From assembly GCA_039680395.1 (NCBI GenBank), contig JBDKSY010000081.1, forward strand, positions 1 through 47,728: DNA of 47,728 nt, in the 5' to 3' direction. The stretch is from Anaerolineaceae bacterium (GTDB taxonomy: Bacteria > Chloroflexota > Anaerolineae > Anaerolineales > Anaerolineaceae). Below the pieces are notes generated by a model. That model did no database searches. It saw nothing but the letters and a program-made list of their open reading frames with translations, and was not told where the DNA came from. Positions 1,328 to 41,883 of the stretch are shown piece by piece. Positions within the stretch are counted from its first letter, which is position 1; the number at the start of each line of letters is the position of its first letter. The position numbers and the translations under genes are program-made.

Positions 1328-2683
1328 TCATATTATAGACTTCATCTTCTTTTGTATTGCAGTATGAAATCTATTTCTCACCCCTTCAAAAGGGATCCGT
1401 TCCATAATGGGGTCAAAAAATCCTTCGACAATCAACTTCTCGGCTTCCTTTTGAGGGATACCTCGGCTGACAAGATAAAAAAGCAGATCTGGATCAATCT
1501 TCCCAATTGTTGCACCATGAGTGCATCGCACATCATCAGCCAGGATTTCCAATCCAGGGATCGAATCCGCCCGAGCGTTCCTGCTGAGTATTAGATTTCG
1601 ATTTGCCTGATATCCATCGGTTTTTATTGCTTCTGGCGCTACATAGATCATTCCTTGCCAGACTGAACGACTTTCATCCAACAGTGCGCCTTTAAAAAGC
1701 AGGTCACTGGTAGTATTTGGTGCCAAATGGTTTTGCTGGGTATCATGGTCAAGGTGCTGATGATTATTTGTGAAGTAAAATCCAGACATTTTTCCTTCTG
1801 AACCCTGTCCATGCAAAGTAATCTCAGAGAAATTCTTTGTCAGTCGGCTGCCTATTGAGCCAAATATCCAATCCACACTCCCATCTTTCTCTACAATCGC
1901 ACGTTCATGCGTAAAGTTCCAAACATTTTGGCCCCAGGATTGCAGCTCAACAAATCTCAAATGAGCACCAGGTTGAATCAATAATTCAACATTTCCTGCA
2001 TGAAATAATTGACCTTCAGTATCATCAGGTGATGCCGATTCATGAACATAAGTTACACTGGCGCCTTCATCCAGGTAAACCAGGATATGACTGATATACG
2101 CAAGATCAATTCCCTGACCCCATAACAGGCTGTGCAGGGGCGCTTCTATCTTCACATTTTTTGGCACAAACAAAAATACACCCTGCCTGGCAAATGCGCC
2201 TGCCAGAGCAGCAAATTTTCCTTCTTGTGGCGAGACTACTTTACCAAGTACTTTTACCAGTAACTCTGGGTATTTTCGCTCTGCAGAGTGCAGATCAGTA
2301 AAAATTACTCCTTTTGAAGATAGTTCTTCACTGAGAACTGCTTTTGTGGTTTCTGCATTCTGGATTAGCTGTCCACCATGAGATTTCCCGGCTAAAGGTT
2401 TTAATAAAGTAGATGGGATTCTTTCCTGTCTGGAATATCCATCCATGCCGGCTAAATGGAACATGTCAGAACGCAACTCATGAACATCGGTTCTGCGCCA
2501 TGCTTCATCTTTTATTGTGGGCATTGGAGTATTCTGAAATGCTTCCCATGATTTTCTTCGGTAATCGCAAATCGCGTCATCCTGGCAAAATCCCGGCATC
2601 ATCTCGCCAGTAAAGCAGAATTCCGGCGCAATGGATGACTCGACTCGACGTTTTCGGGTAATAATGGTGGGTGCTTCTTGCAT
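1328..2683 (-). CDS. sufD: Fe-S cluster assembly protein SufD
   Basis: 451-aa ORF with a SufBD-type C-terminal region (QANRNLILSRNARADSIPGLEILADDVRCTHGATIGKIDPDLLFYLVSRGI). It sits between sufB and sufS. Confidence 0.9.
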   Translation of the reverse strand: MQEAPTIITRKRRVESSIAPEFCFTGEMMPGFCQDDAICDYRRKSWEAFQNTPMPTIKDEAWRRTDVHELRSDMFHLAGMDGYSRQERIPSTLLKPLAGKSHGGQLIQNAETTKAVLSEELSSKGVIFTDLHSAERKYPELLVKVLGKVVSPQEGKFAALAGAFARQGVFLFVPKNVKIEAPLHSLLWGQGIDLAYISHILVYLDEGASVTYVHESASPDDTEGQLFHAGNVELLIQPGAHLRFVELQSWGQNVWNFTHERAIVEKDGSVDWIFGSIGSRLTKNFSEITLHGQGSEGKMSGFYFTNNHQHLDHDTQQNHLAPNTTSDLLFKGALLDESRSVWQGMIYVAPEAIKTDGYQANRNLILSRNARADSIPGLEILADDVRCTHGATIGKIDPDLLFYLVSRGIPQKEAEKLIVEGFFDPIMERIPFEGVRNRFHTAIQKKMKSII

Positions 2684-2698
2684 TCTCTTATCTCATTT

Positions 2699-4111
2699 CT
2701 ATCCGACTGAACCAGCCATTTGTAGCTGGACCAACCGGTTCATCTCAACAGCATATTCCATAGGAAGCTCTTTTACCAATGGCTCGATGAAACCTGAAAC
2801 GATCATCGATGTGGCTTCTTCTTCGCTTAATCCTCGGCTTTTCAGGTAGAACAACTGCTCTTCACCAACTTTTGATACCGATGCTTCGTGCCCAATGGAC
2901 ACATCTTCTTCATCGATCTCCATGGTTGGATAAGTGTCTGAGCGAGCTTGTCGATCCAACAGAAGTGCATCACACACCGTATTCGATTTCACCCGTTCAG
3001 CTCCATCAATCACTTTCACCAATCCCCGGTAAGACGACCTGCCATTACCTTTACTGATAGATTTCGAAGTTATCTTGCTGGTCGTATCCGCTGCAAAGTG
3101 GAGCATTTTTCCACCTGCGTCCTGGTGTTGTCCATTGCCGGCAAACGCCATCGAGAGGATTTCACCATGCGCCCCTTTCCCCATCAGATAACAGGAAGGA
3201 TATTTCATGGTGACTTTAGAGCCTATATTGGCGTCCACCCATTCCATGGTGGCATCTTCGTGCACCAGAGCACGCTGCGTTACCAGGTTATACACATTGG
3301 TAGACCAGTTTTGAATGGTTGAATAGCGCATGCGGGCGCCTTTTTTAACGATGATTTCGATCACGCCACTGTGGAATGAGTTCGTAGAGTATTGAGGTGC
3401 AGTACAACCTTCTACATAATGCACTTGTGCTCCTTCATCAACAATGATCAGTGACCGTTCAAATTGTCCAATATTGGCGACATTCAATCGGAAGTAAGCC
3501 TGTAAAGGAAGATCAACTTTCACCCCTTTTGGTACATACACAAAAGAACCACCAGACCACACAGCACTGTTTAATGCTGCGAATTTATTATCTTCAATTG
3601 GCACGACAGTACCAAAATACTCTTTAAACAGATCAGGATGTTGCTGTAATCCATGCTCAATGCTCAAGAAAATCACACCCTGTGCAGCAAGATGCTCCTG
3701 GATGCTGTGATAAACCATTTCTGATTCATATTGCGCTCCAACACCAGCCAGGAATTTTTGTTCCGCCTCAGGAATACCCAGTTTATCAAAGGTGTTTTTT
3801 ATCGTTTCCGGGACATCGTCCCAATTTTTACTTTCAGCTTCTGTGGGCTTTACATAATAGTAAATATCATCCAGATCCAATTGCGAAAGATCAGCCCCCC
3901 ATGTGGGAATGGGTCTTGTTTGATAATGTTCGAGTGCCCGTAAACGAAAATCAAGCATCCATTGAGGTTCATGTTTCATGGCAGAGATCATCTCTACCAC
4001 CTGGCGATCCAACCCTTTACGAGATTTAAATACCGAAACATCTGGATCTATAAACCCATACTTATATTCACTGATCTTTTCCAGGAAATCTGCCTTCTGT
4101 TCGTTGCTCAT
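2699..4111 (-). CDS. sufB: Fe-S cluster assembly scaffold SufB
   Basis: 470-aa ORF. N-terminus has YKYGF. C-terminus reads [79 protein letters not shown], a classic SufB sequence. Confidence 0.95.
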
Positions 4112-4136
4112 AACAACCTCCGCGGTACCTCTAAAA

Positions 4137-4913
4137 TCAGGCAGTTACCCCGTTCATATATTTTTCTCGCACCCAATCATACCCACGTTCTTCCAGATGC
4201 AGAGCCAGTTCAGCATCACCTGATTCAACGATCCTTCCATCCAGCATAACATGCACAAAATCGGGTTTGATGTAATTGAGAATTCTCTGATAATGAGTGA
4301 TCAACAAGATTCCCAGGTCGGATCCACTCAAAGTATTGATCCCCTCAGAGACTATACGCAATGCATCAATATCCAATCCAGAATCGGTCTCGTCAAGGAT
4401 GGCAATTTCAGGTTTTAAGATTGCCATTTGCAATACTTCAGCTCGTTTTTTCTCGCCACCTGAAAATCCCTCATTGAGATACCTTCCCGCAAATACCGGA
4501 TCCATTTTTAGCAATTCCATTTTTTCTCGTAGAATCTTTCGAAATTCCACGATCGGTACACCTTTGTCTTCTGGATTGGCAGCTTTCCTTCTTGCATTCA
4601 CTGCAGTGCGAAGAAAATTGGCAACAGTAACCCCTGGAATCGAAACCGGATATTGAAAAGCCAGGAACATACCCATTCTTGAGCGTTCATCTGCGCCTTT
4701 ATCCAAAATGCTTATTCCGTTAAGGAAGATATCACCGCCAGTGATCGTATATGCAGGATGTCCCATCAGCGCGTTTGCCAAAGTGGATTTGCCCGTTCCA
4801 TTAGGCCCCATGATGGCATGGACTTCACCCTTTTGTACAACCAGATTGACGCCTTTCAATATCTCTTTCTCGCCAATATTCACATGCAAGTCGTATATTT
4901 CCAATCCTGACAT
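4137..4913 (-). CDS. sufC: Fe-S cluster assembly ATPase SufC
   Basis: 258 aa with Walker [13 protein letters not shown] signature FSGGEKKR and Walker [11 protein letters not shown]. First gene of the operon. Confidence 0.95.
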
Positions 4914-4931
4914 TCGAAAACTCCTGTTAAT

Positions 4932-4946
4932 CGCAGATAATCTGCG
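4932..4946. promoter_or_regulatory. Perfect 7-1-7 palindrome CGCAGAT-A-ATCTGCG in the sufC 5' leader (candidate operator or RNA hairpin)
   Basis: Read directly. cgcagat (4932-4938) is the reverse complement of atctgcg (4940-4946). It lies between the predicted sufC -10 element and the sufC SD/ATG (4913). Confidence 0.4.
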
Positions 4947-4970
4947 TAATCATTTTTCTTTTTCGGCAAA

Positions 4971-4999
4971 ATTATAGCACACGCAATTAATAAGGTCAA
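4971..4999 (-). promoter_or_regulatory. Predicted sigma70-type promoter of sufCBD-x-S
   Basis: The minus strand reads TTGACC (4999..4994), a 17-nt spacer, then TGcTATAAT (4979..4971), i.e. an extended -10. It lies about 58 nt upstream of the sufC ATG. Confidence 0.6.
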
Positions 5000-5023
5000 T
5001 ATTTATGATATTATTCTAATATA

Positions 5024-5052
5024 TTGACAATAATTCACTCCTTGGTTATACT
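5024..5052 (+). promoter_or_regulatory. Predicted sigma70-type promoter of the sufR-DUF59 operon
   Basis: TTGACA (5024-5029), a 17-nt spacer, then TATACT (5047-5052). The ATG is at 5064, so the leader would be very short. Confidence 0.6.
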
Positions 5053-5063
5053 CCGTATCAGGT

Positions 5064-5717
5064 ATGAAAATGAAAAGTACTCGAGAGCGGATTATGCAAT
5101 CCTTATTAGAACATTCTCGCACTTCTATTGCCGAATTAGCACAGGAAGCGGGGATCAATACCATTTCTGTTCGACACCATCTGGATGCCCTTCAGTCAGA
5201 AGGTATGGTAAACGCTGAAGAAGAACGGCATGGTGTTGGTCGTCCAAGATTGGTTTATTTTCTCACTGAAAAAGGACAAGAACACTTCCCAACTCGATAT
5301 TTTCGTCTGACCAATCAACTTATCGACCAAATGAAACAAGTACTGCCTGTTGAAACCATTCAACAGATATTTGCAGGGTTGGCTAATGATATCTCTTCTG
5401 AACAAGGGAAACGAGCTTCCGCTCGACCTCTCGAAGAAAAGTTGAATATATTAAAAGAATTGCTTGCAAGAGAAGGTTTTATTGTGGAATGGGATAAAGA
5501 CGAAGATAGTTATCATCTTCGCGAAATCTCCTGTCCATACATGCATATTGGTCAGAATCACCCAGAAGTATGCACCCTTGATCAAACGATCATTGCGAAC
5601 ATCCTTAATGTTCCTGCACAGAAGATCACCTGCGTACTGAGTGGAGATAATCTCTGTACCTATGTGATTCCTCGCAACTCAATGGAGACAGAAAATGACC
5701 GAACAACCCGGCAGTAA
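5064..5717 (+). CDS. sufR: SufR-type winged-helix (ArsR/DeoR-like) Fe-S regulator
   Basis: 217 aa. N-terminal HTH: RERIMQSLLEHSRTSIAELAQEAGINTISVRHHLDALQSEGMV..GVGRPRLVYFLTEKGQEHFPTRY. The C-terminal region has four Cys (C-x12-C-x19-C-x7-C) that could bind a cluster. It is divergent from sufCBDS, as cyanobacterial and actinobacterial sufR genes are. Confidence 0.8.
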   Translation: MKMKSTRERIMQSLLEHSRTSIAELAQEAGINTISVRHHLDALQSEGMVNAEEERHGVGRPRLVYFLTEKGQEHFPTRYFRLTNQLIDQMKQVLPVETIQQIFAGLANDISSEQGKRASARPLEEKLNILKELLAREGFIVEWDKDEDSYHLREISCPYMHIGQNHPEVCTLDQTIIANILNVPAQKITCVLSGDNLCTYVIPRNSMETENDRTTRQ

Positions 5718-6042
5718 TCAAGCCCATTGGCAATCTGAGCAAACTGACCCAGAACTAACCGGTAAATTGCGAGAAGGTTTACGCGAAATAACAGATCCTG
5801 AAATTGGTTTGGATATCATTCAGCTTGGTTTGATTCGAGATGTAAAGATTGAACCTGATTTCGCCCTCATAAAAATGATCTTAACCACTATTTACTGCCC
5901 TTATGGTCCTGCCATGATGGAAAAAACACGAGAAAAAGCCGAGCAAGTTTTAGAAAGACCTACCCGGCTTGAATTAGGGATGGAAATGTGGGATTACTCA
6001 ATGATGGAAGATGGCGCTGCTGAAAATTGGGGTTGGTTCTAA
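5695..6042 (+). CDS. DUF59/MIP18-family (SufT-like) Fe-S assembly protein
   Basis: 115 aa. Contains ITDPEIGLDIIQLGLIRDV and the TTIYCPYG motif typical of DUF59 (conserved Cys). Overlaps the sufR 3' end by 23 nt. Confidence 0.8.
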   Translation: MTEQPGSNQAHWQSEQTDPELTGKLREGLREITDPEIGLDIIQLGLIRDVKIEPDFALIKMILTTIYCPYGPAMMEKTREKAEQVLERPTRLELGMEMWDYSMMEDGAAENWGWF

Positions 6043-6046
6043 TTTC

Positions 6047-6376
6047 CTAACCCAATTTAAATAAATTCAACAACTTCATAGCAAATGGCATATTTCCACC
6101 AACTTTGATCCTACCCTGCATAAATGCAGTGGCTGGATCCAATTTTCCCGTAAAAATCCGTATGCAATCTTGTGTATTTGCAGTGAGCGTTACTGTTGGA
6201 TTTGGTTGAGCACCTTCTCTTACTTTGCATTGCTTATCCTTGATTTCTACCGTCCATGACCGTACTTCTTTATCTTTCAAATCGAACTGAACTCTGGCGT
6301 CAATACCTTCAGATTTTTCAGGTTGAAAAGCAGTTGGAATGAATTGAAAAAATTGCTCAACATTTAATTCTGTCAT
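6047..6376 (-). CDS. SCP2 sterol-binding-domain protein
   Basis: 109 aa. The C-terminal half reads GKLDPATAFMQGRIKVGGNMPFAMKLLNLF, the SCP2 signature. GGAGG lies upstream of the ATG. Confidence 0.8.
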   Translation of the reverse strand: MTELNVEQFFQFIPTAFQPEKSEGIDARVQFDLKDKEVRSWTVEIKDKQCKVREGAQPNPTVTLTANTQDCIRIFTGKLDPATAFMQGRIKVGGNMPFAMKLLNLFKLG

Positions 6377-6413
6377 GATGGTTTCCTCCGTCCATTAGTA
6401 TAACGACAAATGG

Positions 6414-6445
6414 AACGGGCTGCCAGTGCAGCCCGTTTTCTTTAT
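6414..6445. terminator. GC-rich hairpin between the peroxiredoxin and SCP2 genes (intrinsic terminator, possibly bidirectional)
   Basis: 10-bp stem AACGGGCTGC / GCAGCCCGTT with loop CAGT (6414-6437). The plus strand continues TTCTTTAT. On the minus strand an A-tract precedes the stem and CCATTTGT follows it. The hairpin lies 31 nt downstream of the prx stop. Confidence 0.55.
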
Positions 6446-6467: not shown

Positions 6468-7181
6468 CTAAAAAGCTTTATCAGTAGTCCATTCTTTCCA
6501 GACTTTACCAACCAGAGCTGGGCTGGGTTTCAATGTGGGTTTGCCTGGTATCCAACCAGAAGGTGTCACTTCGCCGGTGGCTCGAACATGCTGAAATGCT
6601 TTTACCTGGCGTAATAATTCATTGACATTTCTACCAACTTCAGGAGTTAACACTTCCATTGCACGAATGACAAAATCCGGGTCAATAATGAACCGACCTC
6701 GAATATCCACTCCAGCTTCTTCATCGTACACACCATAGATTTCACCTACCCTGCCACCCCCATCAGACAGCATGGGGTATGGAATACCCCCCGGCACCAT
6801 CTTCGATAGTTCTTCTTCGTGCCAGATCTTATGGGAAAATCTGCTATCAACACTTATCGCAAAAACTTCAACCCCCAGTGCTTTTAGTTCACTATATTTG
6901 ACGGCAACTGCCGATAATTCTGTTGGTCAGACAAATGTAAAGTCACCTGGATAGAAACAAATAACGATCCATTTTCCTTTGTAATCGGATAATTTGATAT
7001 TTTTAAATCCGCCATCAAAATAAGCATTTAATTCAAAATCAGGAGCGGGTTTTCCTACCTTCGCAAGCATTTTTGATGCCTCCTTTTTTATTTCAGGAAG
7101 TAGACCTTCGGAGAGTTTTTCTCCTTCAGGGATAATTGGCCCTTGAGTTGGCTTTACGCAAGATAATTTTTGTTCAGTCAT
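6468..7181 (-). CDS. Peroxiredoxin (AhpC/Prx family) with an in-frame TGA at the peroxidatic Cys position; candidate selenoprotein
   Basis: Track ORFs 6927..7187 and 6468..6800 are in the same frame. Reading through gives ..[12 protein letters not shown](6929..6927)[51 protein letters not shown].., which is continuous Prx sequence with no other stop. There are two candidate starts, each with GGAGG: ATG 7181 (MTEQKLSC..) and ATG 7070 ([12 protein letters not shown].., giving typical Prx length). Confidence 0.8.
6902..6913 (-). other. Short hairpin downstream of the in-frame UGA (weak bacterial SECIS candidate)
   Basis: The minus-strand RNA has CGGC-AGUU-GCCG starting 14 nt after the UGA, with the loop G about 19 nt from the UGA. 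The stem is only 4 bp, so this is weak evidence. Confidence 0.3.
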
Positions 7182-7223
7182 GCACACCTCCTTATTCGTA
7201 TTTTGTACTGATAATTCCTACCT

Positions 7224-16743: not shown

Positions 16744-16775
16744 AGCTCTGTGAATACAGGGCTTTTTCGTTTTTA
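16744..16775 (+). terminator. Intrinsic terminator or attenuator after the pilin gene
   Basis: 7-bp stem AGCTCTG / CAGGGCT (one G-U pair) with loop TGAATA, followed by TTTTCGTTTTTATT. A pilin-proximal partial terminator is common in pilus operons. Confidence 0.55.
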
Positions 16776-16884
16776 TTGCATATTTCCACCCTACAGTTTT
16801 CTTAAGTGGCATAAAGCATGCATCTTGTTTGTTTTGATATATAATGATTTTGTATATTCCATGCCCATAATGGAGGAGGACTCT

Positions 16885-17973
16885 ATGGCAACAGGTGGAA
16901 AGAAAACAGGTCGTCTTTTTATACTGGTAGCTTTGATTTTAATACTTATAGTTGTGGCAGCAGTATTCCTGCTGCGAAAACAACTATTTCCATCACCAAC
17001 TGCTAATGTAGAAACGACTCCGATCCCTTCATCAGATTTAGTAAAGATCGCAGTTCTGGCTCAACCCGTAGTTCATGGAACCCAGATAACTGAAGATCTA
17101 TTACTTTTCGTTGATTATCCACGGAAAAGCCTGACTGAAGGATTGTTTTATACAGAAGATCAAGTAGTGAATCTCCTGGATAAACGAGTGAAATTTGATC
17201 TGGCGCAAGGAACACCCCTTACACCTGGATTGATCACTGAAGCACCAACCGGTTCTTATGCATCGTACCTGATTCCACGAGGCATGGTGGCTGTATCCAT
17301 CCCGATCAGTCGTCTGACTTCTGTTGCCTATGCACTTCAAGCTGGAGATCATGTAAATATTATTGGTTCTCTGTTGCTTGTTGACCTGGATGCAGACTAT
17401 CAGACCATTCTGCCAAATTCGACAGGTGTAATTTTATTACCTGGCACTCCCCTGGGAGAAGGAACAACCGGTACAGCAACAGTTCAAAGTGGAGAAGGTT
17501 CAGGTGTGGCTGGTAGAACGATCATTGATATGACATTAAATCAGGCGTTATATGTTACACCGTCCGAGGCACAACGATCGCGGTTGATCAGCCAGACCCT
17601 TATTCAAGATGTAGTTGTATTATGGGTTGGGAACTTCCCTGAAGGTGAATTAATTGCTGGACCTGCACCAACACCCACTCCAGCTGCAGAAGGTGAAGAA
17701 CAAGCAGTCACAACAAGTACTGGCAATCCAGATATCATTACTTTGATCGTGACCCCGCAAGACGCCGTTACAATAAATTACTTGATGCTTTCTGGTGCAC
17801 AGTTAAACCTTGCTTTGCGTGGCGCAGGAGATGATCAGCAGGTTGCCACTGAAGCGGTTACTTTGCAATTCTTAATGGAGCAATATGGGATTCCTTACCC
17901 TGTAAAACTGCCATATGGAATGCAGCCCAGGGTAGACCAGATGATTTACCCATCACTTGAGAATGGTCAATAA
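16885..17973 (+). CDS. cpaB: Flp pilus assembly protein CpaB/RcpC
   Basis: Start ATG 16885, preceded by GGAGGAGGA. It has an N-terminal TM helix (LFILVALILILIVVAAVFLL), a SAF-like segment, and the motif IPRGMVAVSIPISRLTSVAYALQAGDHVNIIG. Gly/Thr/Pro-rich inserts are present. Confidence 0.8.
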   Translation: MATGGKKTGRLFILVALILILIVVAAVFLLRKQLFPSPTANVETTPIPSSDLVKIAVLAQPVVHGTQITEDLLLFVDYPRKSLTEGLFYTEDQVVNLLDKRVKFDLAQGTPLTPGLITEAPTGSYASYLIPRGMVAVSIPISRLTSVAYALQAGDHVNIIGSLLLVDLDADYQTILPNSTGVILLPGTPLGEGTTGTATVQSGEGSGVAGRTIIDMTLNQALYVTPSEAQRSRLISQTLIQDVVVLWVGNFPEGELIAGPAPTPTPAAEGEEQAVTTSTGNPDIITLIVTPQDAVTINYLMLSGAQLNLALRGAGDDQQVATEAVTLQFLMEQYGIPYPVKLPYGMQPRVDQMIYPSLENGQ

Positions 17974-18020
17974 CGGATAGCAAGCCAGTTATTGAGCTAT
18001 CTTAATCTTTGGAGAACAGC

Positions 18021-19232
18021 ATGCCATCTCAGGAAAAAATCAGAACTCTTTTGGTTGATGATATTACTGAGACAAGAGAGAATCTAAGAAGACTTCTTCA
18101 ATTCGATGTAAGCATTGAAGTCATAGGTGAGGCGCGTGGTGGCAGAGAAGCCATTGAATTAGCGGCGAAATTAAAACCCGAAGTTGTCGTTATGGATATC
18201 AATATGCCAGATATGGATGGCATCCAGGCAACAGAAGGTATTCGGAAAAAAGTACCCTATTGTCAGGTCATTATTCTCTCTGTTCAAAATGACATGCAGT
18301 ACATGCGCCGTGCAATGGTGGTGGGAGCACGTGATTTCCTAACAAAACCGCCAACCATTGACGAGCTCACTATTGCAGTTCATCGAGCAGGTGAAACGGC
18401 AAAAGATGAATTTGCCAAATACAATCAAAGCCTTCAACTTGCAGCAACTCCTGGTTCTACAGGAGTTGGCGGTTCGGTAAATGGGAAAATTATTGCTGTT
18501 TATAGCCCTAAAGGTGGTACAGGTTGTACATCAATAGCTACTAATCTTGCGTTGGCAATGGATACCAGCTTAAACAAAGTCGCTCTGGTAGATAGCAGTA
18601 TGCAATATGGCGATATCCCAATTTTTATCAATGAACAATTAAAAAATTCAGTCCTCGATTTGACAGTACATTCAGATGAATTAGACCCAGAATTAGTTCA
18701 GGAAGTTGTTGTCAAGCAGGAAAAAACCGGATTACATGTTCTTGCTGCTCCACCTCGACCAGAGTTGGCAGAAAAAGTAGTAGGTGATCAATTTGGTCAG
18801 TTGTTAAATTACATGCGAAATTTGTATAACTACATAATTGTAGATACCTCAACCTACTTATCCGAAGCAGTTCAATCCGTATTGGATATCGCAGATGCGA
18901 TCGTCTTGATTACTACTCAAGATATACCTGCTATAAAGAATGCAAGTTCATTTTTATTGCTCGCGGATGCCCTGGGAATTTCGCGTAAAAGAGTTCTCTT
19001 CGTCCTTAACAAGTTCGATCGAAGGGTTGCCATTCTACCCGAACGTATTACCGTAAACCTGAAACAAGAAGTAATTCTTTCCATTCCATTGGATGATCGC
19101 TTCATTAGCAATTCGATCAATCGTGGAATTCCATTATTTTTAGAAAATAAAACTCATCCATTCAGCAAAAGTATGATTACATTGGCAGAAATGGTCAAAC
19201 AAAGGCTGGAAACATTGGAAGGTACATTTTAA
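18021..19232 (+). CDS. cpaE: CpaE/TadZ-type pilus assembly protein: response-regulator receiver plus ParA/MinD-like ATPase domain
   Basis: Start ATG 18021. The receiver carries all canonical residues (LLVDD, VVVMDINMPDMDG, ILSV, LTKP). The ATPase-like domain has the deviant Walker A KGGTGCTS. Confidence 0.85.
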   Translation: MPSQEKIRTLLVDDITETRENLRRLLQFDVSIEVIGEARGGREAIELAAKLKPEVVVMDINMPDMDGIQATEGIRKKVPYCQVIILSVQNDMQYMRRAMVVGARDFLTKPPTIDELTIAVHRAGETAKDEFAKYNQSLQLAATPGSTGVGGSVNGKIIAVYSPKGGTGCTSIATNLALAMDTSLNKVALVDSSMQYGDIPIFINEQLKNSVLDLTVHSDELDPELVQEVVVKQEKTGLHVLAAPPRPELAEKVVGDQFGQLLNYMRNLYNYIIVDTSTYLSEAVQSVLDIADAIVLITTQDIPAIKNASSFLLLADALGISRKRVLFVLNKFDRRVAILPERITVNLKQEVILSIPLDDRFISNSINRGIPLFLENKTHPFSKSMITLAEMVKQRLETLEGTF

Positions 19233-19256
19233 TCTGCCACTTGGGAGTAGCTATCA

Positions 19257-20672
19257 ATGTCAATTTTAAAGAGAATTCAGAACGGGGAAAGTAAGCCAGG
19301 CAATCCTGCAACAGCTTCTTCGCCTGTTCCGCCCCAAACACCTCATCAACCTCAACAACCAACATTGCAGGCGCGTCGAATCACAGCGCCAACTTCCAAC
19401 ATCGGGCAGGACACTTATCAGGATTTAAAGACACGAGTACAGAACAAATTGCTTGCTGGTTTGGATCCCAGCATGGATGTCACGAAAACCGCAGAAGTTC
19501 GAACCACAATTCAGGAACTTTTTGAATCTATCCTGAATGAAGAGAATATTATCCTCACCCGGCCAGAAAGAGCCAGACTCTTTGAGCAGATTTCCGCTGA
19601 AATCCTTGGCTTTGGTCCAATTCAACCGCTGCTCGAAGATGACTCCATTACCGAAGTCATGGTAAACGGCGCAAAGAATATCTACATTGAGCGTAAAGGG
19701 AAAATTTACCGGGTCCCTTTAAGTTTCGAATCAAATGCCCATGTAATGCGCATTGTTGACAGAATTGTTGCTCCTCTTGGGCGTCGCGTAGATGAATCCA
19801 GTCCTTATGTAGATGCTCGTCTACCTGATGGTTCTCGTGTAAATGTGATCATTCCCCCCATTTCTCTGGTGGGACCTGTTATTACCATTCGTAAATTCGC
19901 ACGAGACCCCATCACCGTTGACCAACTTATCGAATATGGTACTGCAACACCCGAGGTTATTGAATTTCTTAAAGCATGCGTACAATCCCGCTTAAATGTT
20001 GTCATTTCAGGTGGTACTGGTTCAGGAAAGACCACTTTACTCAATATCCTTTCCAGTTTCATTCCTGCGGATGAACGCATTGTAACAATCGAAAATGCAG
20101 CAGAGTTGCAACTCCGTCAGGAACATGTAGTCACGCTTGAATCAAGACCACCAAACATTGAAAACAAAGGGGAAATCACCATTCGTCAATTGGTTGTCAA
20201 TGCCCTGCGTATGCGCCCTGACCGCATCATTGTTGGTGAAATTCGTGACGAAGCAGCCATTGATATGTTGCAGGCCATGAACACAGGTCATGACGGGTCA
20301 ATGACCACCCTTCACTCCAATGGACCTCGTGATACACTTGCACGTCTTGAAACTATGACCTTGATGGCAGGTATGGACCTCCCTGTACGTGCTATTCGTG
20401 AACAGGTAGCATCCGCAATTGACCTGATCGTCCACCAGGAACGCTTACGTGATGGAACCAGAAAGATTGCATCACTTTCTGAAGTTGTAGGCATGGAAGG
20501 CGATATCATTACGATGACAGAGGTCTTTGCCTTCGAACAAACCGGTTTGGATAATGGACATATTTTAGGAAGATTACGCGCAACAGGGCTTCGTCCGAAA
20601 TTCATGGAAAAAATAGAGGCATCTGGCATCTCACTTCCGCCCAGTATTTTTGGAATAGGTGTACGAAGATAA
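19257..20672 (+). CDS. cpaF: CpaF/TadA secretion ATPase
   Basis: 471 aa with Walker [31 protein letters not shown] and [13 protein letters not shown]. Confidence 0.95.
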
Positions 20673-20686
20673 TGCAGAGGTATTGA

Positions 20687-21655
20687 ATGAACCTCAGTCC
20701 CATTCTAATATTAGGCATTGGTGGTGGTTTCGCAATCATTTTGTTGGTTGTTGGCATCGCCGTATCAGTCAAGCGCGATAAATCCCTTGTTGATGAACGC
20801 CTGGGAAAATACGTTGATAAAACGCAACAGGTTGTTGATAAAAAGCAATCAACATCTGTCGTAACAGAATGGATTGATCGTAAAGTAGAAGGCTCCAGCA
20901 CTGGAGACAAGATAAGAAAGAATCTCGCACGTGCTGACCTGAAAATGAAAACCGGTGAGTATATTGCCCTCATCGTGATCTGTGTAATTCTATTGGCATT
21001 CCTGGGATATTTTATTGGCGGTCGTTCTATCATTGTTTTCATCATTGGTGGAGTAATTGGTGGTTTCTTACCCGGGATCTATGTGCGTAGTCAGCAAAAG
21101 AAACGTCTGGTTCATTTCAATGATCAATTGGGTGATATGCTCAATTTAATGGTGAACGGTTTACGTGCAGGATATTCCACCATGCAAGCAATGGAATCCG
21201 TTAGCCGTGAACTACCCAGCCCAATATCTGATGAATTCCGCAGGGTAGTTCAAGAAATGCAACTGGGTATTTCTATGGAAATAGCACTAGACAATCTATT
21301 ACGCCGTATTCCCAGTGATGACCTTGATCTCATTATTACTGCAATAAATGTTCAACGTGAAGTTGGTGGTAACCTGGCTGAAATTCTCGATACGATTTCG
21401 TATACGATACGTGAAAGAGTCAGGATCAAAGGAGAGATCCGGGTGTTGACAACCCAGGTGATGTATTCTGGCAGATTCCTTTCATTCTTACCTTTAATTG
21501 TTATGGCCATTCTTTATATGGTTAACAGACCTTACCTGATGGAATTCTTTTCTAAGAGTAGCGGAATTTGCGGGTATGTTGCATTAGGTCTGGCAGCAAT
21601 TTTGATCGTATTCGGATATATGGCAATGAACAAACTGGGTGATATTGAGGTTTAG
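20687..21655 (+). CDS. tadB: TadB (T2SS-F family inner-membrane platform protein)
   Basis: 322 aa with TM helices flanking a GspF-type cytoplasmic domain (LPDMLNLMVNGLRAGYS...ALDNL). It follows cpaF after a 14-nt gap. Confidence 0.85.
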   Translation: MNLSPILILGIGGGFAIILLVVGIAVSVKRDKSLVDERLGKYVDKTQQVVDKKQSTSVVTEWIDRKVEGSSTGDKIRKNLARADLKMKTGEYIALIVICVILLAFLGYFIGGRSIIVFIIGGVIGGFLPGIYVRSQQKKRLVHFNDQLGDMLNLMVNGLRAGYSTMQAMESVSRELPSPISDEFRRVVQEMQLGISMEIALDNLLRRIPSDDLDLIITAINVQREVGGNLAEILDTISYTIRERVRIKGEIRVLTTQVMYSGRFLSFLPLIVMAILYMVNRPYLMEFFSKSSGICGYVALGLAAILIVFGYMAMNKLGDIEV

Positions 21656-21674
21656 CTCCGCATCGGAGGCTTGT

Positions 21675-22625
21675 ATGATCGGTGTAATCGTTATTCTTCT
21701 CATAATTCTAATCGGGGGTGGTGCTTTAGTTTATATCGGGATTCGTGCCCCCCAGAACAGCGATGATGATCTGATTCAAGAGCGTCTTGAAGAGTTTCTT
21801 CAAAAAGGCGAACAGGTAGACCTCGAAAAACTCGAAATGTCTCGTCCTTTCACTGAAAGAGTACTTTATCCAGTTGCAAGAAAACTGGGACAGGTAGCTG
21901 CGAAATTTACTCCTCAAAATGCCCTAAATTCAATCGCTATGCAATTGGAGAGAGCAGGAAACCCTGGCCGGTTGGATCCAACTCTGTTCCTGGCTCTTCA
22001 ATTTATTGCCCTGGTATTCTTTGGCGGCGTCATATTACTGGTATTTTCAGTCGGACAAACAAAAATGCCGTTTGGGCGGATACTGCTTTTCGCTCTCCTA
22101 TTTGGTATGTTGGGTTTCTTCTTCCCTCGATTATGGGTGACCAGCAAGATCAATCGTCGTCAAAAATCCATTCGAAGAGCGCTGCCAGATGCATTGGATC
22201 TTTTAACCATTTGTGTTGAAGCTGGCTTGGGTTTTGATGCCGCTATGCAAAAAGTAAGTAACAAATGGGAAACGGAATTATCACTTGCCTTTGCGAGAGT
22301 AATTAAAGAAGTACAGTTAGGAAAACTAAGAAGAGATGCACTGCGAGATATGTCCGATAAAATTGGTATCCCTGAATTAACCAGTTTTGTCGCAGCAGTG
22401 ATCCAGAGTGAGCAATTGGGTGTCAGTTTAGCAAAAGTTCTCCGAATTCAATCTGATCAAATGCGAATGAAACGACGGCAGCATGCTGAAGAGGAAGCAC
22501 ACAAAGCCCCAGTAAAAATGTTGATCCCAATGGTGCTCTTGATATTTCCTTCACTGATAATTGTATTGCTTACACCAGCCGCACTCAAATTAATGAGCTC
22601 ATCATTAGGCAGTATGTTTAAATAA
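21675..22625 (+). CDS. tadC: TadC (T2SS-F family platform protein)
   Basis: Start ATG 21675 with GGAGG upstream. Contains ALPDALDLLTICVEAGLGFDAAM and multiple TM helices. Confidence 0.85.
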   Translation: MIGVIVILLIILIGGGALVYIGIRAPQNSDDDLIQERLEEFLQKGEQVDLEKLEMSRPFTERVLYPVARKLGQVAAKFTPQNALNSIAMQLERAGNPGRLDPTLFLALQFIALVFFGGVILLVFSVGQTKMPFGRILLFALLFGMLGFFFPRLWVTSKINRRQKSIRRALPDALDLLTICVEAGLGFDAAMQKVSNKWETELSLAFARVIKEVQLGKLRRDALRDMSDKIGIPELTSFVAAVIQSEQLGVSLAKVLRIQSDQMRMKRRQHAEEEAHKAPVKMLIPMVLLIFPSLIIVLLTPAALKLMSSSLGSMFK

Positions 22626-39963: not shown

Positions 39964-40399
39964 TGAAGTTGTTTTCCTGATTCATACGATTTGCTTCCAG
40001 ATAATCTTGCAACAGAATTGAAGCAGCAAAATCATCCAGATGTCCTGCACGCCTGGAACGCGGTACATCCATCTCTCGAGCATACCTTTGAGCAGATTGC
40101 GTGGTACCACTCTCATCCCATAAAACAACTGGTTTATTGGTGATTATTTTTATTGCTTCAGCCAATCTGGCAGCTCTGCGTCCCTGGATGGATAACGTAC
40201 CATCATCTTGAAGAGCTTGACCCACTACGATGCAGCTTATCTCATTTTCTTGAACAAGGGCTGCGATTTCTTGAGCATCCTTTTCTCGAGATGTATGCAA
40301 AATTACTTTCAATGGTCGGGCGATCGTGCCAGTCAGATCGCTTATTGCGACTCCGATACGTTTATTACCCGGGTCAATTCCTAGAAATCTACAGCTCAT
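39953..40399 (-). CDS. ruvX: Putative pre-16S rRNA nuclease / Holliday-junction-resolvase-like YqgF
   Basis: Start ATG 40399 (MSCRFLGIDPGNKRIGVAISD), which overlaps the upstream gene's stop as ATGA. The track ORF's longer N-terminus is unlikely. Confidence 0.9.
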   Translation of the reverse strand: MSCRFLGIDPGNKRIGVAISDLTGTIARPLKVILHTSREKDAQEIAALVQENEISCIVVGQALQDDGTLSIQGRRAARLAEAIKIITNKPVVLWDESGTTQSAQRYAREMDVPRSRRAGHLDDFAASILLQDYLEANRMNQENNFNET

Positions 40400-41883
40400 G
40401 GAGACTCTATTTCTATTTGGAAGGAGAGGTAGGGCATTCGTGTCCAAAATCCAGGGTAGACGATCACTTCACTGGCTGGTAAAACACCTGGAATTTGCTT
40501 GACGAAGTTCACCGCTTCTTCCTTCTTCATTCCTCGCATTTGAAGTGCGAGGGTTTCGTGATCAATATTGGTTGTGATATTTCGAACCGCAAAAATATCC
40601 CACTCATATGGTTCAGATTTTCCAACAGGCTCACTCAACAGGGTATATTGCAGACTCCCTGGAACACTTTTTTGGTTTTTCTCTAAAATTGCATCCATGC
40701 TCATCTGAATTGCCTGGTGTACATCTAAATCTTTGTAATAGAGAAGCGTAATAGTTGCAGTTTGCTTTAATTGCAAATATTCAGAAGGCATTCCAATCCC
40801 TGGTTGAATTTCTTCGTAAGTGACATCAATTACGGGGGATTCTGCTTCGATAACAATAATACTATCTTCTGTTTCACTGATCTTCAATTTTGCAGCAGCG
40901 ATCAGATCCTGTTCAAGTTCCTGTCGCAATTTGAGAAGATCGCTTTCCATTCCCACAGGTGAGATCACATCTTCTCCACCTGTACATGGTTGGGGATTGG
41001 TAACATTCAAATACACACCAACAGTCCCTTCCACCGCAACGATCTGGTCAATCTCCACATTTCCAATCGTTCCTGGTTGCAAGGCTATGATCTCAACTGT
41101 TTTCGTTGATCCCATGCCCCCAGTCACAATAATGTCTCTCGTTGTTGCAAATCGGATGACAGGATTACTCTGGGTTAAAACAATGGTACCAGCCGGAACA
41201 GTGACAGAGGTATCACGTAAGCTGGTGAAAACTACTTCGCCCTGTGCATAAGTTTTCGGGACTGCCTGCTGACCACTGGTTTGAATTTGCTTTTCCCCAG
41301 TCACGCTGATCTCCGCAACTTCAAGAGGGATGTTACCAGCAATATCAGGGGAGGAATATTTGCTGCTTCCACGTAAAGTCATTGTGACCTCTTGTTGCAA
41401 GTTGGATGTCTTTACAACAACCCTGGCTCGAGGTGCAAATAAAATCACCAGAGAAAGCATGGCAGCTACCCCGATTAAAAATGAAGTCACCCTCAACCAT
41501 ATCGGTTGATGGCGTGGTTTTAAAACTTCCCGTCTCTCGCGCAACTCTGCTGCTGAAGCTACTTTTTCTCGTGAGGGTAACTTTTGTAAGTATTTTTTAC
41601 TTCTTCGCCAGGGTTTACTATTCGCTTCAGGAATAGAAGCGAAAAAAGGTACACCCATTTCTTTAGCAAGCTCCAAAACCTCGTTATCATGGGTGATCAA
41701 ACCCAATTGTGCTCCTTGCCATCTTGCCTTGCGGGCTAATAATTGAAGATCTTTCTTTGAATGGATGATATGTTGCTTCTTCGGCAGTACAAGCAACACT
41801 CTTGTACTTTTTGACCATGAAATCTGGTCTAGTACAGAGATGACATCGTCATGACTTTCAGGTTGAAGAATGTGAGTTTTCAT
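40396..41883 (-). CDS. Membrane-anchored hypothetical protein with a baseplate-J/gp47-like beta-rich ectodomain
   Basis: 495 aa. It has an N-terminal ~95-aa soluble domain, one TM helix (WLRVTSFLIGVAAMLSLVILFA), then ..AQGEVVFTSLRDTSVTVPAGTIVLT..IRFATTRDI..VEIIALQPGTIGNVEIDQIV..VTNPQPCTGGEDV..ESDLLKLRQ, which resembles the Baseplate_J pattern. The resemblance is by eye only. Confidence 0.6.
   Translation of the reverse strand: MKTHILQPESHDDVISVLDQISWSKSTRVLLVLPKKQHIIHSKKDLQLLARKARWQGAQLGLITHDNEVLELAKEMGVPFFASIPEANSKPWRRSKKYLQKLPSREKVASAAELRERREVLKPRHQPIWLRVTSFLIGVAAMLSLVILFAPRARVVVKTSNLQQEVTMTLRGSSKYSSPDIAGNIPLEVAEISVTGEKQIQTSGQQAVPKTYAQGEVVFTSLRDTSVTVPAGTIVLTQSNPVIRFATTRDIIVTGGMGSTKTVEIIALQPGTIGNVEIDQIVAVEGTVGVYLNVTNPQPCTGGEDVISPVGMESDLLKLRQELEQDLIAAAKLKISETEDSIIVIEAESPVIDVTYEEIQPGIGMPSEYLQLKQTATITLLYYKDLDVHQAIQMSMDAILEKNQKSVPGSLQYTLLSEPVGKSEPYEWDIFAVRNITTNIDHETLALQMRGMKKEEAVNFVKQIPGVLPASEVIVYPGFWTRMPYLSFQIEIESP

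Follow-up and report, generated by a model that had tools for sequence, protein, structure and literature searches.

A probable selenoprotein gene: a PrxU-type peroxiredoxin with UGA at its peroxidatic codon in an Anaerolineae-like Chloroflexota bacterium

Two open reading frames on the minus strand of an Anaerolineae-like Chloroflexota contig, at positions 6927..7187 and 6468..6800, raise the question of whether the TGA codon that separates them marks a broken peroxiredoxin gene or a site of selenocysteine insertion. The window referred to below is the whole stretch of DNA that was analysed, 47,728 nucleotides in length. A sequence-only reading had proposed that the two ORFs share one frame, that the 126 nt between them (6801..6926) translate as unbroken peroxiredoxin sequence, and that TGA 6929..6927 is the only in-frame stop and falls on the cysteine of the FTFVCPTE active-site motif. 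All three statements were borne out when the frame was followed through the region. The long form of the coding sequence, prxU, occupies 6468..7181 in a single frame, from an ATG at 7181..7179 to a TAG at 6470..6468, and comprises 237 codons plus the stop. The lone internal stop (6927..6929, minus strand) lies in the sequence FTFV-U-PTE at codon 85, here called Sec85, which is the peroxidatic position of the PxxxTxxC motif, and relatives carry TGA at the homologous codon.

With a cysteine substituted for the stop, Pfam identified an AhpC-TSA domain (E = 3e-39) together with 1-cysPrx_C. The assignment to a subfamily comes from the NCBIfam equivalog model NF040737 'peroxi_PrxU', against which the protein, with U replaced by C in the query, scored 390 bits relative to a cutoff of 270 (E = 3.8e-117). 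The match is nearly full length, pairing residues 7-234 with positions 3-232 of the 233-position model, and takes in the N-terminal extension. The AhpC model TIGR03137 gave 195 bits, under its cutoff of 272, and the protein does not have the resolving cysteine of a typical 2-Cys/AhpC enzyme. Models of the Prx6-type 1-Cys peroxiredoxins (NF009668, NF009669) gave 119-139 bits, likewise under their cutoffs of 211-261, and two further conserved cysteines, Cys8 and Cys75, also set the protein apart from that class. The two hallmarks of PrxU proteins are both present: TGA 6929..6927 stands at the Sec/Cys position of FTFV-x-[PA]TE, and the canonical C-terminal resolving position is occupied by a residue other than cysteine (GEVTPS versus GEVCPA or GEVSPA). 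The UGA also aligns with the redox-active cysteine of homologues, as expected of a selenoprotein; three Cys-form homologues (L032, L084, L085) have TGC at the codon equivalent to Sec85, and the homologues in the PDB have cysteine. The earlier assignment to a PrxU-type selenocysteine peroxiredoxin without a canonical resolving cysteine is thus supported, both by the curated model and by conservation of the TGA. The locus is very probably an intact gene for a PrxU-type peroxiredoxin, predicted to be thioredoxin-dependent, with selenocysteine as its peroxidatic residue.

The known PrxU, a peroxiredoxin that contains selenocysteine, is from Eubacterium (Peptoclostridium) acidaminophilum (Sohling et al. 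2001, as cited in PMC13188914), and selenocysteine-containing peroxiredoxins with a TxxU motif are an established bacterial selenoprotein family that appears in selenoproteome surveys (PMC13188914, PMC1794560). The window protein shares with the E. acidaminophilum enzyme a Prx1/AhpC-like fold, selenocysteine in place of the peroxidatic cysteine in FTFV-U-xTE, and the lack of a C-terminal resolving cysteine. The host differs, being an uncultured Anaerolineae-like Chloroflexota bacterium rather than a clostridium, and the active site reads U-P-T-E in the window protein while a more distant PrxU subgroup has U-A-T-E. The closest solved structures by sequence are typical 2-Cys peroxiredoxins of the AhpC/Prx1 group (E about 1e-51 to 1e-52 over residues 40-220), among them human PRDX2 (1qmv, 7kj1) and hookworm AcePrx-1 (4fh8), which have the same PxxxTxxC(U) motif and C-terminal arm region. 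Relative to these, the window protein has selenocysteine for the peroxidatic cysteine, threonine for the cysteine of GEVCPA, cysteine for phenylalanine ten residues before the active site, and an additional N-terminal arm of 37 residues with a conserved cysteine. Two further selenoprotein families, the Prx-like thiol:disulfide oxidoreductases (UxxC) and Prx-SUH (CxxU), resemble it in placing selenocysteine at a redox-active cysteine of a thioredoxin fold; however, they have other architectures, and the window protein carries a true peroxiredoxin TxxU motif (PMC13188914).

Conservation of the TGA was assessed in a scan of 185,579 species-representative genomes with peptide patterns that omitted the active-site codon, from which the best 80 loci were kept. 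In 79 of these 80 best GTDB species loci the Sec85 codon is TGA. The loci belong to Anaerolineae, where identity reaches 78%, and to many other phyla, and those bearing TGA include members of Chloroflexota, Thermodesulfobacteriota, Acidobacteriota, Actinomycetota, Zixibacteria and Bacillota. A metagenome scan was seeded with Cys-form proteins of planctomycetes, and even so TGA forms were dominant (69 of 76 loci, with cysteine in the other 7). Within this peroxiredoxin clade the selenocysteine form therefore outnumbers the cysteine form among both the best genome loci and the metagenome relatives. Closer to the window, the TGA is kept in the syntenic orthologue L001, whose 149-residue C-terminal fragment matches at 95% identity, and also in L002 and L003. 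Codon differences relative to L001 number 58 synonymous and 7 non-synonymous downstream of the TGA and 11 and 1, respectively, upstream of it. Purifying selection acts on the coding sequence before and after the TGA.

The sequence-only reading had also put forward a short hairpin at 6913..6902 as a candidate SECIS element, and compensatory changes at synonymous third positions, specific to the TGA-bearing genes, now substantiate it. The SECIS-like stem-loop spans nt +13..+32, with numbering that starts at the U of the UGA (6898..6917, minus strand). Its core stem, C17-G28 to C20-G25, forms the hairpin CGGC-AGUU-GCCG (6902..6913), which is closed by an apical loop of the R-GU-Y type, A21-G22-U23-U24 (6906..6909). 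The loop G lies at +22 from the U of the UGA, or 19 nt past its A. Published rules for bacterial SECIS elements call for a stem of 6-8 bp and a conserved G in the loop, about 20 nt past the UGA (PMC4605307), and in the E. coli element the upper stem-loop spans nt 15-31 and carries G23 and U24 (PMC8659212); the geometry predicted for the prxU hairpin fits both descriptions.

The folding of the region after the UGA by itself, which had been suggested as a check, gave -5.7 to -6 kcal/mol with a z of about 0, not better than shuffled sequences. The positive evidence is the conservation of the stem-loop in orthologues. It comes from a gapless alignment of 83 TGA-bearing sequences, 82 of them distinct, in which nt 13-20 and 25-32 form the stem and nt 21-24 the loop. 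Pair 18-27, which connects two synonymous third-codon positions, is unpaired in none of them (GC 64, AU 12, GU 4, CG 1, UA 1). The loop-closing pair 21-24 is AU in 46, GC in 34 and GU in 2, such that the loop reads A-GU-U or G-GU-C, with complementarity between bases one and four in 82/82 distinct sequences. Pair 16-29 occurs as GC, AU, UA, GU or a U.U mismatch, and whole-stem variants such as GAGUGC/GCACUC and GAGCGC/GCGCUC are seen. The covariation score was 0.294, as compared to 0.150 ± 0.010 for shuffles (0/500 reached 0.294) and at most 0.115 for slid registers. Four of five hairpin measures exceeded all 500 shuffles, the remaining one, pairs changed on both sides, being matched by 32/500; all five exceeded every slid register. 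All four base pairs of the core are intact in 132 of 150 distinct selenocysteine forms versus one of eight cysteine forms (Fisher p = 8e-6). G22 and U23 are also the first two positions of a conserved valine codon, so their invariance alone is no evidence.

Like the E. coli fdhF-type SECIS, the prxU element is a hairpin within the coding sequence just past the UGA that exposes a loop G-U (G22 U23 here, G23 U24 in E. coli), and its stem reaches up to 8 bp within the family. The frequently unpaired U16 of the prxU family (U.U) is reminiscent of the bulged U17 of E. coli (PMC8659212, PMC4605307). The prxU element differs in that it lies one nucleotide nearer to the UGA, its R-GU-Y loop has first and fourth bases that always covary (A..U or G..C), and it is without an extended lower helix back to the UGA. 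A search of the whole window against Rfam at gathering thresholds returned no family match, bacterial SECIS elements not being expected among Rfam hits.

Selenocysteine insertion in this organism may be inferred from these conserved recoding signals. Given what is known of the process in bacteria, the UGA at 6929..6927 would not be read as a stop during translation; the stem-loop, which begins about 12 nt past the UGA, is predicted to recruit SelB.GTP.Sec-tRNA(Sec) from within the coding sequence, leading to the insertion of selenocysteine.

The alternative that survives best is that termination dominates at this particular copy, either with the selenocysteine machinery lost or down-regulated or with a weak SECIS element (A15.C30, U16.U29), giving mostly an 84-residue fragment and little full-length protein. 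The hairpin in the window amounts to four G-C pairs plus the loop-closing A-U and, as noted, folds no better than shuffles. Its lower stem is weakened by the U16.U29 and A15.C30 mismatches. Most relatives have a stronger one: a UUA leucine codon places A.C at pair 15-30 in the window, where 67/82 relatives have G-C. Moreover, even a good SECIS gives UGA recoding an efficiency of only 30-40% in E. coli (PMC4513850). Against this, A.C at pair 15-30 is also found in five other species, the upper hairpin UCGGCAGUUGCCGU is common to most Anaerolineae orthologues, and purifying selection persists downstream of the TGA in this lineage. Dominant termination is considered unlikely.

It is more improbable still that the UGA is read without selenocysteine machinery, whether by near-cognate tryptophan or cysteine tRNAs or under a reassigned code (table 4 or table 25 type), so as to place Trp, Gly or Cys at position 85. 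Such a reading might be drawn from public databases, where orthologue translations have W (P0001-P0004) or G (P0119) at the active site. The DNA of L003, the locus of P0004, has TGA at this codon, and the W is TGA translated under another code table. TGA also ends 13 of the 43 long ORFs in the window; from this, UGA is a normal stop in this organism that is recoded at the prxU site, and reassignment of the code was rejected. A tryptophan or glycine at the peroxidatic position would abolish catalysis, and a conserved SECIS-type hairpin that is lost in cysteine forms would have no role. A scan of the other genes of the window for a credible in-frame TGA yielded none, its hits being gene junctions and non-coding frames.

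What can still be said for translation without selenocysteine is that the insertion machinery was not seen in the window. ARAGORN, Rfam and a Pfam search of 20 of the roughly 43 long ORFs found no tRNA-Sec, selA, selB or selD in the 47.7 kb; a SelD-motif regular expression had no match across all fetched loci, and ARAGORN detected no tRNA-Sec in the flanks of 60 related loci. The 20 ORFs searched with Pfam include a suf operon, CorA, DegV, tad-pilus genes, FtsH and glycogen genes. Genes for an SCP2-family protein, an FeS-assembly protein, an HTH regulator and CorA neighbour prxU; only its closest relatives (L001, L008-L010) share this neighbourhood, and the family as a whole therefore has no common operon. 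A consensus scan picked out a 12-bp G+C-rich terminator-like hairpin (6412..6439), with the better T run on the plus strand, in the gap that separates the prxU stop from the SCP2-family gene downstream. Its prxU gene marks the Anaerolineae-like organism as a probable selenocysteine user.

The explanation that a nonsense mutation struck the catalytic cysteine codon of a dead or decaying gene, as the single stop dividing two called ORFs and the truncation of orthologues to 149 residues by public gene callers (P0047, P0069, P0107) might imply, is effectively refuted and has next to no probability: the TGA is common to 150 distinct orthologous sequences over many phyla, close relatives carry it in place of TGC or TGT, synonymous changes far exceed non-synonymous ones downstream, a covarying hairpin follows, and other stops or frameshifts are absent. 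A split-protein reading was considered as well and rejected.

The favored reading of prxU as an intact selenoprotein gene leads to the question of how the oxidised enzyme would be recycled. By homology, Sec85 would attack the peroxide and be converted to a selenenic acid. In an alignment to 4fh8 and 7kj1, GEVCPAGW and GEVSPAGW stand opposite GEVTPSGW of the window protein, placing Thr206 (6564..6566, minus strand) at the canonical C-terminal resolving position, just as the sequence-only reading had it. In all 70 of 84 loci where the motif was matched, this position is threonine, methionine or alanine and never cysteine. With the canonical residue replaced by threonine, the oxidised selenocysteine would be resolved by one of two other cysteines, Cys8 or Cys75, or be reduced directly by thioredoxin.

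Cys8 (codon 7160..7158) opens the N-terminal motif C8-V-K-P-T-Q-G-P15 (7137..7160, minus strand), for which the family consensus is C-V-x-P-A-K/R-G-P. The motif is present in 134 of 150 selenocysteine-form genes with a complete upstream ORF, and among 50 proteins at 58-73% identity at least 90% have both Cys8 and Pro11 conserved. In exported Cys forms from planctomycetes the N-terminal cysteine motif is retained and follows a signal peptide. The AlphaFold model computed for one Cys-form homologue (P0014) has a confident peroxiredoxin core and a low-confidence, flexible N-terminal arm (pLDDT 48-68). Cys8, carried on this conserved and apparently flexible arm, is a candidate resolving cysteine.

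Cys75 is encoded by a TGT at 6957..6959 (minus strand) in the motif xxCFYPGDF (VICFYPGDF here), ten residues before the selenocysteine, and is likewise a candidate for the resolving role. It stands where ordinary peroxiredoxins have the first phenylalanine of FFYP. The cysteine is invariant in a 12-sequence alignment, is present in all 84 genes listed and in nearly all selenocysteine forms from metagenomes, and is replaced by Phe, Tyr or Val in more distant Cys-type peroxiredoxins. Three points of the initial interpretation consequently need to be revised. The N-terminal extension was described as optional; it has a conserved motif and its own Shine-Dalgarno sequence and start codon. Its cysteine was held to be the only other one nearby, and Cys75 is near-invariant. 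Finally, the enzyme was said to be bound to a 1-Cys(Sec)-type cycle; a strict cycle of this kind is not established, since Cys8 and Cys75 are both conserved and could act as resolving residues.

The long form is preceded by a Shine-Dalgarno sequence, AAGGAGG (7187..7193, minus strand), 5 nt ahead of the ATG at 7181..7179. Across the family, 119 of 133 genes have an SD-like sequence ahead of the upstream start, and in 101 of 134 the distance from this start to the N-terminal cysteine is exactly 7 codons.

A second, conserved Shine-Dalgarno sequence and start codon inside the gene were noticed beside the main question. The internal AAGGAGG (7079..7085, minus strand), recognised by family comparison, is 8 nt ahead of an in-frame ATG for Met38 (7068..7070), use of which would give a putative short form of 200 residues with selenocysteine at position 48. 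A start codon is found at the Met38 position in 82/84 genes, and GGAGG occurs 5-11 nt ahead of the internal ATG, GTG or TTG in 73/84 family genes; over these coding sequences the background frequency is 0.0028 per nt. An independent metagenome set has GGAGG ahead of the internal start in 43 of 52 genes. The amino acids encoded over the internal site vary (KE, QE, RE, EE, GG, ME, VE, LE) while the nucleotides are constant. Codon usage at the site is skewed correspondingly, with GAG for 86% of glutamates (46% elsewhere) and AAG for 98% of lysines (59% elsewhere).

The conserved internal Shine-Dalgarno sequence and start suggest, at the level of sequence comparison, that long (237-residue) and short (200-residue) isoforms are made. 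The characterised PrxU of E. acidaminophilum has 203 residues with selenocysteine at position 47. Presumably it matches the short form from the internal methionine and not the 237-residue long form. A tentative and rather doubtful extension is that PrxU genes are dual-start genes in general: in the long isoform, the arm cysteine would resolve Sec85 by a selenosulfide, possibly across subunits; the short isoform, begun 37 codons further on from the internal Shine-Dalgarno sequence and ATG, would be the classical 200-residue form and would have to act as a 1-Sec enzyme; and the ratio between the two would determine how the oligomer behaves, in catalysis or in regulation. A literature search, in which coverage of PrxU was thin and to which the 2001 original was external, found no description of the PrxU N-terminal arm or of an internal start; a search on N-terminal resolving cysteines in selenocysteine peroxiredoxins found only citations of Sohling et al. 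2001.

Since the family has been established since 2001 and the protein passes a curated NCBI model, the identification of prxU is correct but already known: the locus is an ordinary member of a known, widespread and curated family. For annotation, it follows that the ORFs at 6927..7187 and 6468..6800 belong merged into one selenoprotein gene with selenocysteine at codon 85. The need for such a correction is not confined to this contig. Public protein sets mostly hold the PrxU family in truncated form, as in database fragments of 149 residues that are 95% and 88% identical to the prxU product (P0069, P0107), or with W or G wrongly placed at the active site.

The residual novelty is at the level of the family and consists of hypotheses on the conserved N-terminal cysteine arm, Cys75 and the apparent dual start. 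All three features bear on how a selenocysteine peroxiredoxin without a canonical resolving cysteine may be recycled.

Two translation products, of 237 and 200 residues, are suggested for prxU by the arrangement of its 5' region. An internal Shine-Dalgarno sequence, AAGGAGG, is present on the minus strand at 7079..7085, followed by an in-frame ATG at 7068..7070 (minus strand), 37 codons into the long open reading frame. The internal Shine-Dalgarno sequence is conserved across the family loci (L001-L083 and L086-L165), where it lies 5-11 nt ahead of an in-frame internal start codon in 73 of 84 and 43 of 52 family genes. Here the nucleotides are maintained even though the amino acids they specify differ from gene to gene, and codon usage is biased to AAG and GAG. 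It is this combination of a conserved internal ribosome binding site and start, nucleotides maintained over varying residues, and skewed codon choice that points to the two isoforms.

The segment that only the long form would carry includes an N-terminal motif, C-V-x-P-A-K/R-G-P (7137..7160, minus strand), that was identified in 134 of the 150 Sec-form genes, those with TGA at the peroxidatic codon. A start codon is exactly 7 codons 5' of the motif in 101 of these 134 genes. Exported planctomycete Cys forms (proteins P0017, P0023 and P0031) retain the motif downstream of their signal peptide. A description of the motif was not found in the literature searched. Its cysteine, Cys8, is a candidate for the resolving Cys. 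A second cysteine, Cys75 (6957..6959, minus strand), is located 10 residues N-terminal to Sec in the context xxCFYPGDF and is near-invariant within the PrxU clade; ordinary 2-Cys peroxiredoxins have Phe, Tyr or Val there instead, as does a small number of Sec forms (L137, L141 and L153).

The SECIS-like hairpin 3' of the UGA varies within the family. Sec forms of a subclade with U-PTE[LI]-S-H-I-A-V-G-Y (L142, L143, L146, L147, L162 and L165) lack the standard hairpin register and present a different hairpin a few nucleotides farther 3', about +20 to +40 after the UGA, exemplified by AUAGCC-GUG-GGCUAU. This shifted hairpin may serve as an alternative SECIS. The sole Cys form among the 80 genome loci, L032 (6247-6294), suggests a recent Sec-to-Cys conversion since its hairpin (GGCGGC-GGUC-GCCGCC) is still intact despite the TGC codon. 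Pairs 17-28 or 18-27 are gone from the older Cys forms, L084 and L085.

A Deltaproteobacteria MAG contig (L028) encodes two Sec-type prxU paralogues approximately 5.3 kb apart, with TGA codons at 1916 and 7258; both have the N-terminal motif, the internal Shine-Dalgarno sequence and the SECIS hairpin. In a Chloroflexia MAG (L014), the prxU reading frame around 6250 extends just some 20 codons 5' of the TGA, beginning ...MSDYKGKW, although the gene is 75% identical elsewhere. The short upstream frame may reflect a frameshift or assembly error in the record.

In the window, the prxU stop is separated from an SCP2-family gene (6047..6376) by a terminator-like, G+C-rich hairpin of 12 bp (6412..6439) with the better T run on the plus strand. 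The prxU-SCP2 pairing is kept only among the nearest Anaerolineae relatives (L001, L002, L008 and L010). The stretch 1328..6042 holds suf genes for Fe-S assembly, namely SufC and a pair from the SufB/D family, together with a divergent ArsR/PadR-like regulator whose ORF (5064..5717) overlaps a FeS_assembly_P gene (5695..6042) by 23 nt. The window also contains a tad/Flp pilus cluster at 16750..22625, with genes of the RcpC/CpaB-like, response-regulator ATPase and T2SSE types and two of the T2SSF type, while a Baseplate_J-like ORF stands alone at 40396..41883.

In public protein sets, members of the PrxU family appear either as 149-residue truncations or with the active-site residue given as W or G (P0001-P0004, P0119, P0047, P0069 and P0107). 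The W was traced to a TGA read with another code table (L003:1201-1203), and the same origin is presumed for the G of P0119. Such truncated or substituted entries can mislead homology-based annotation.
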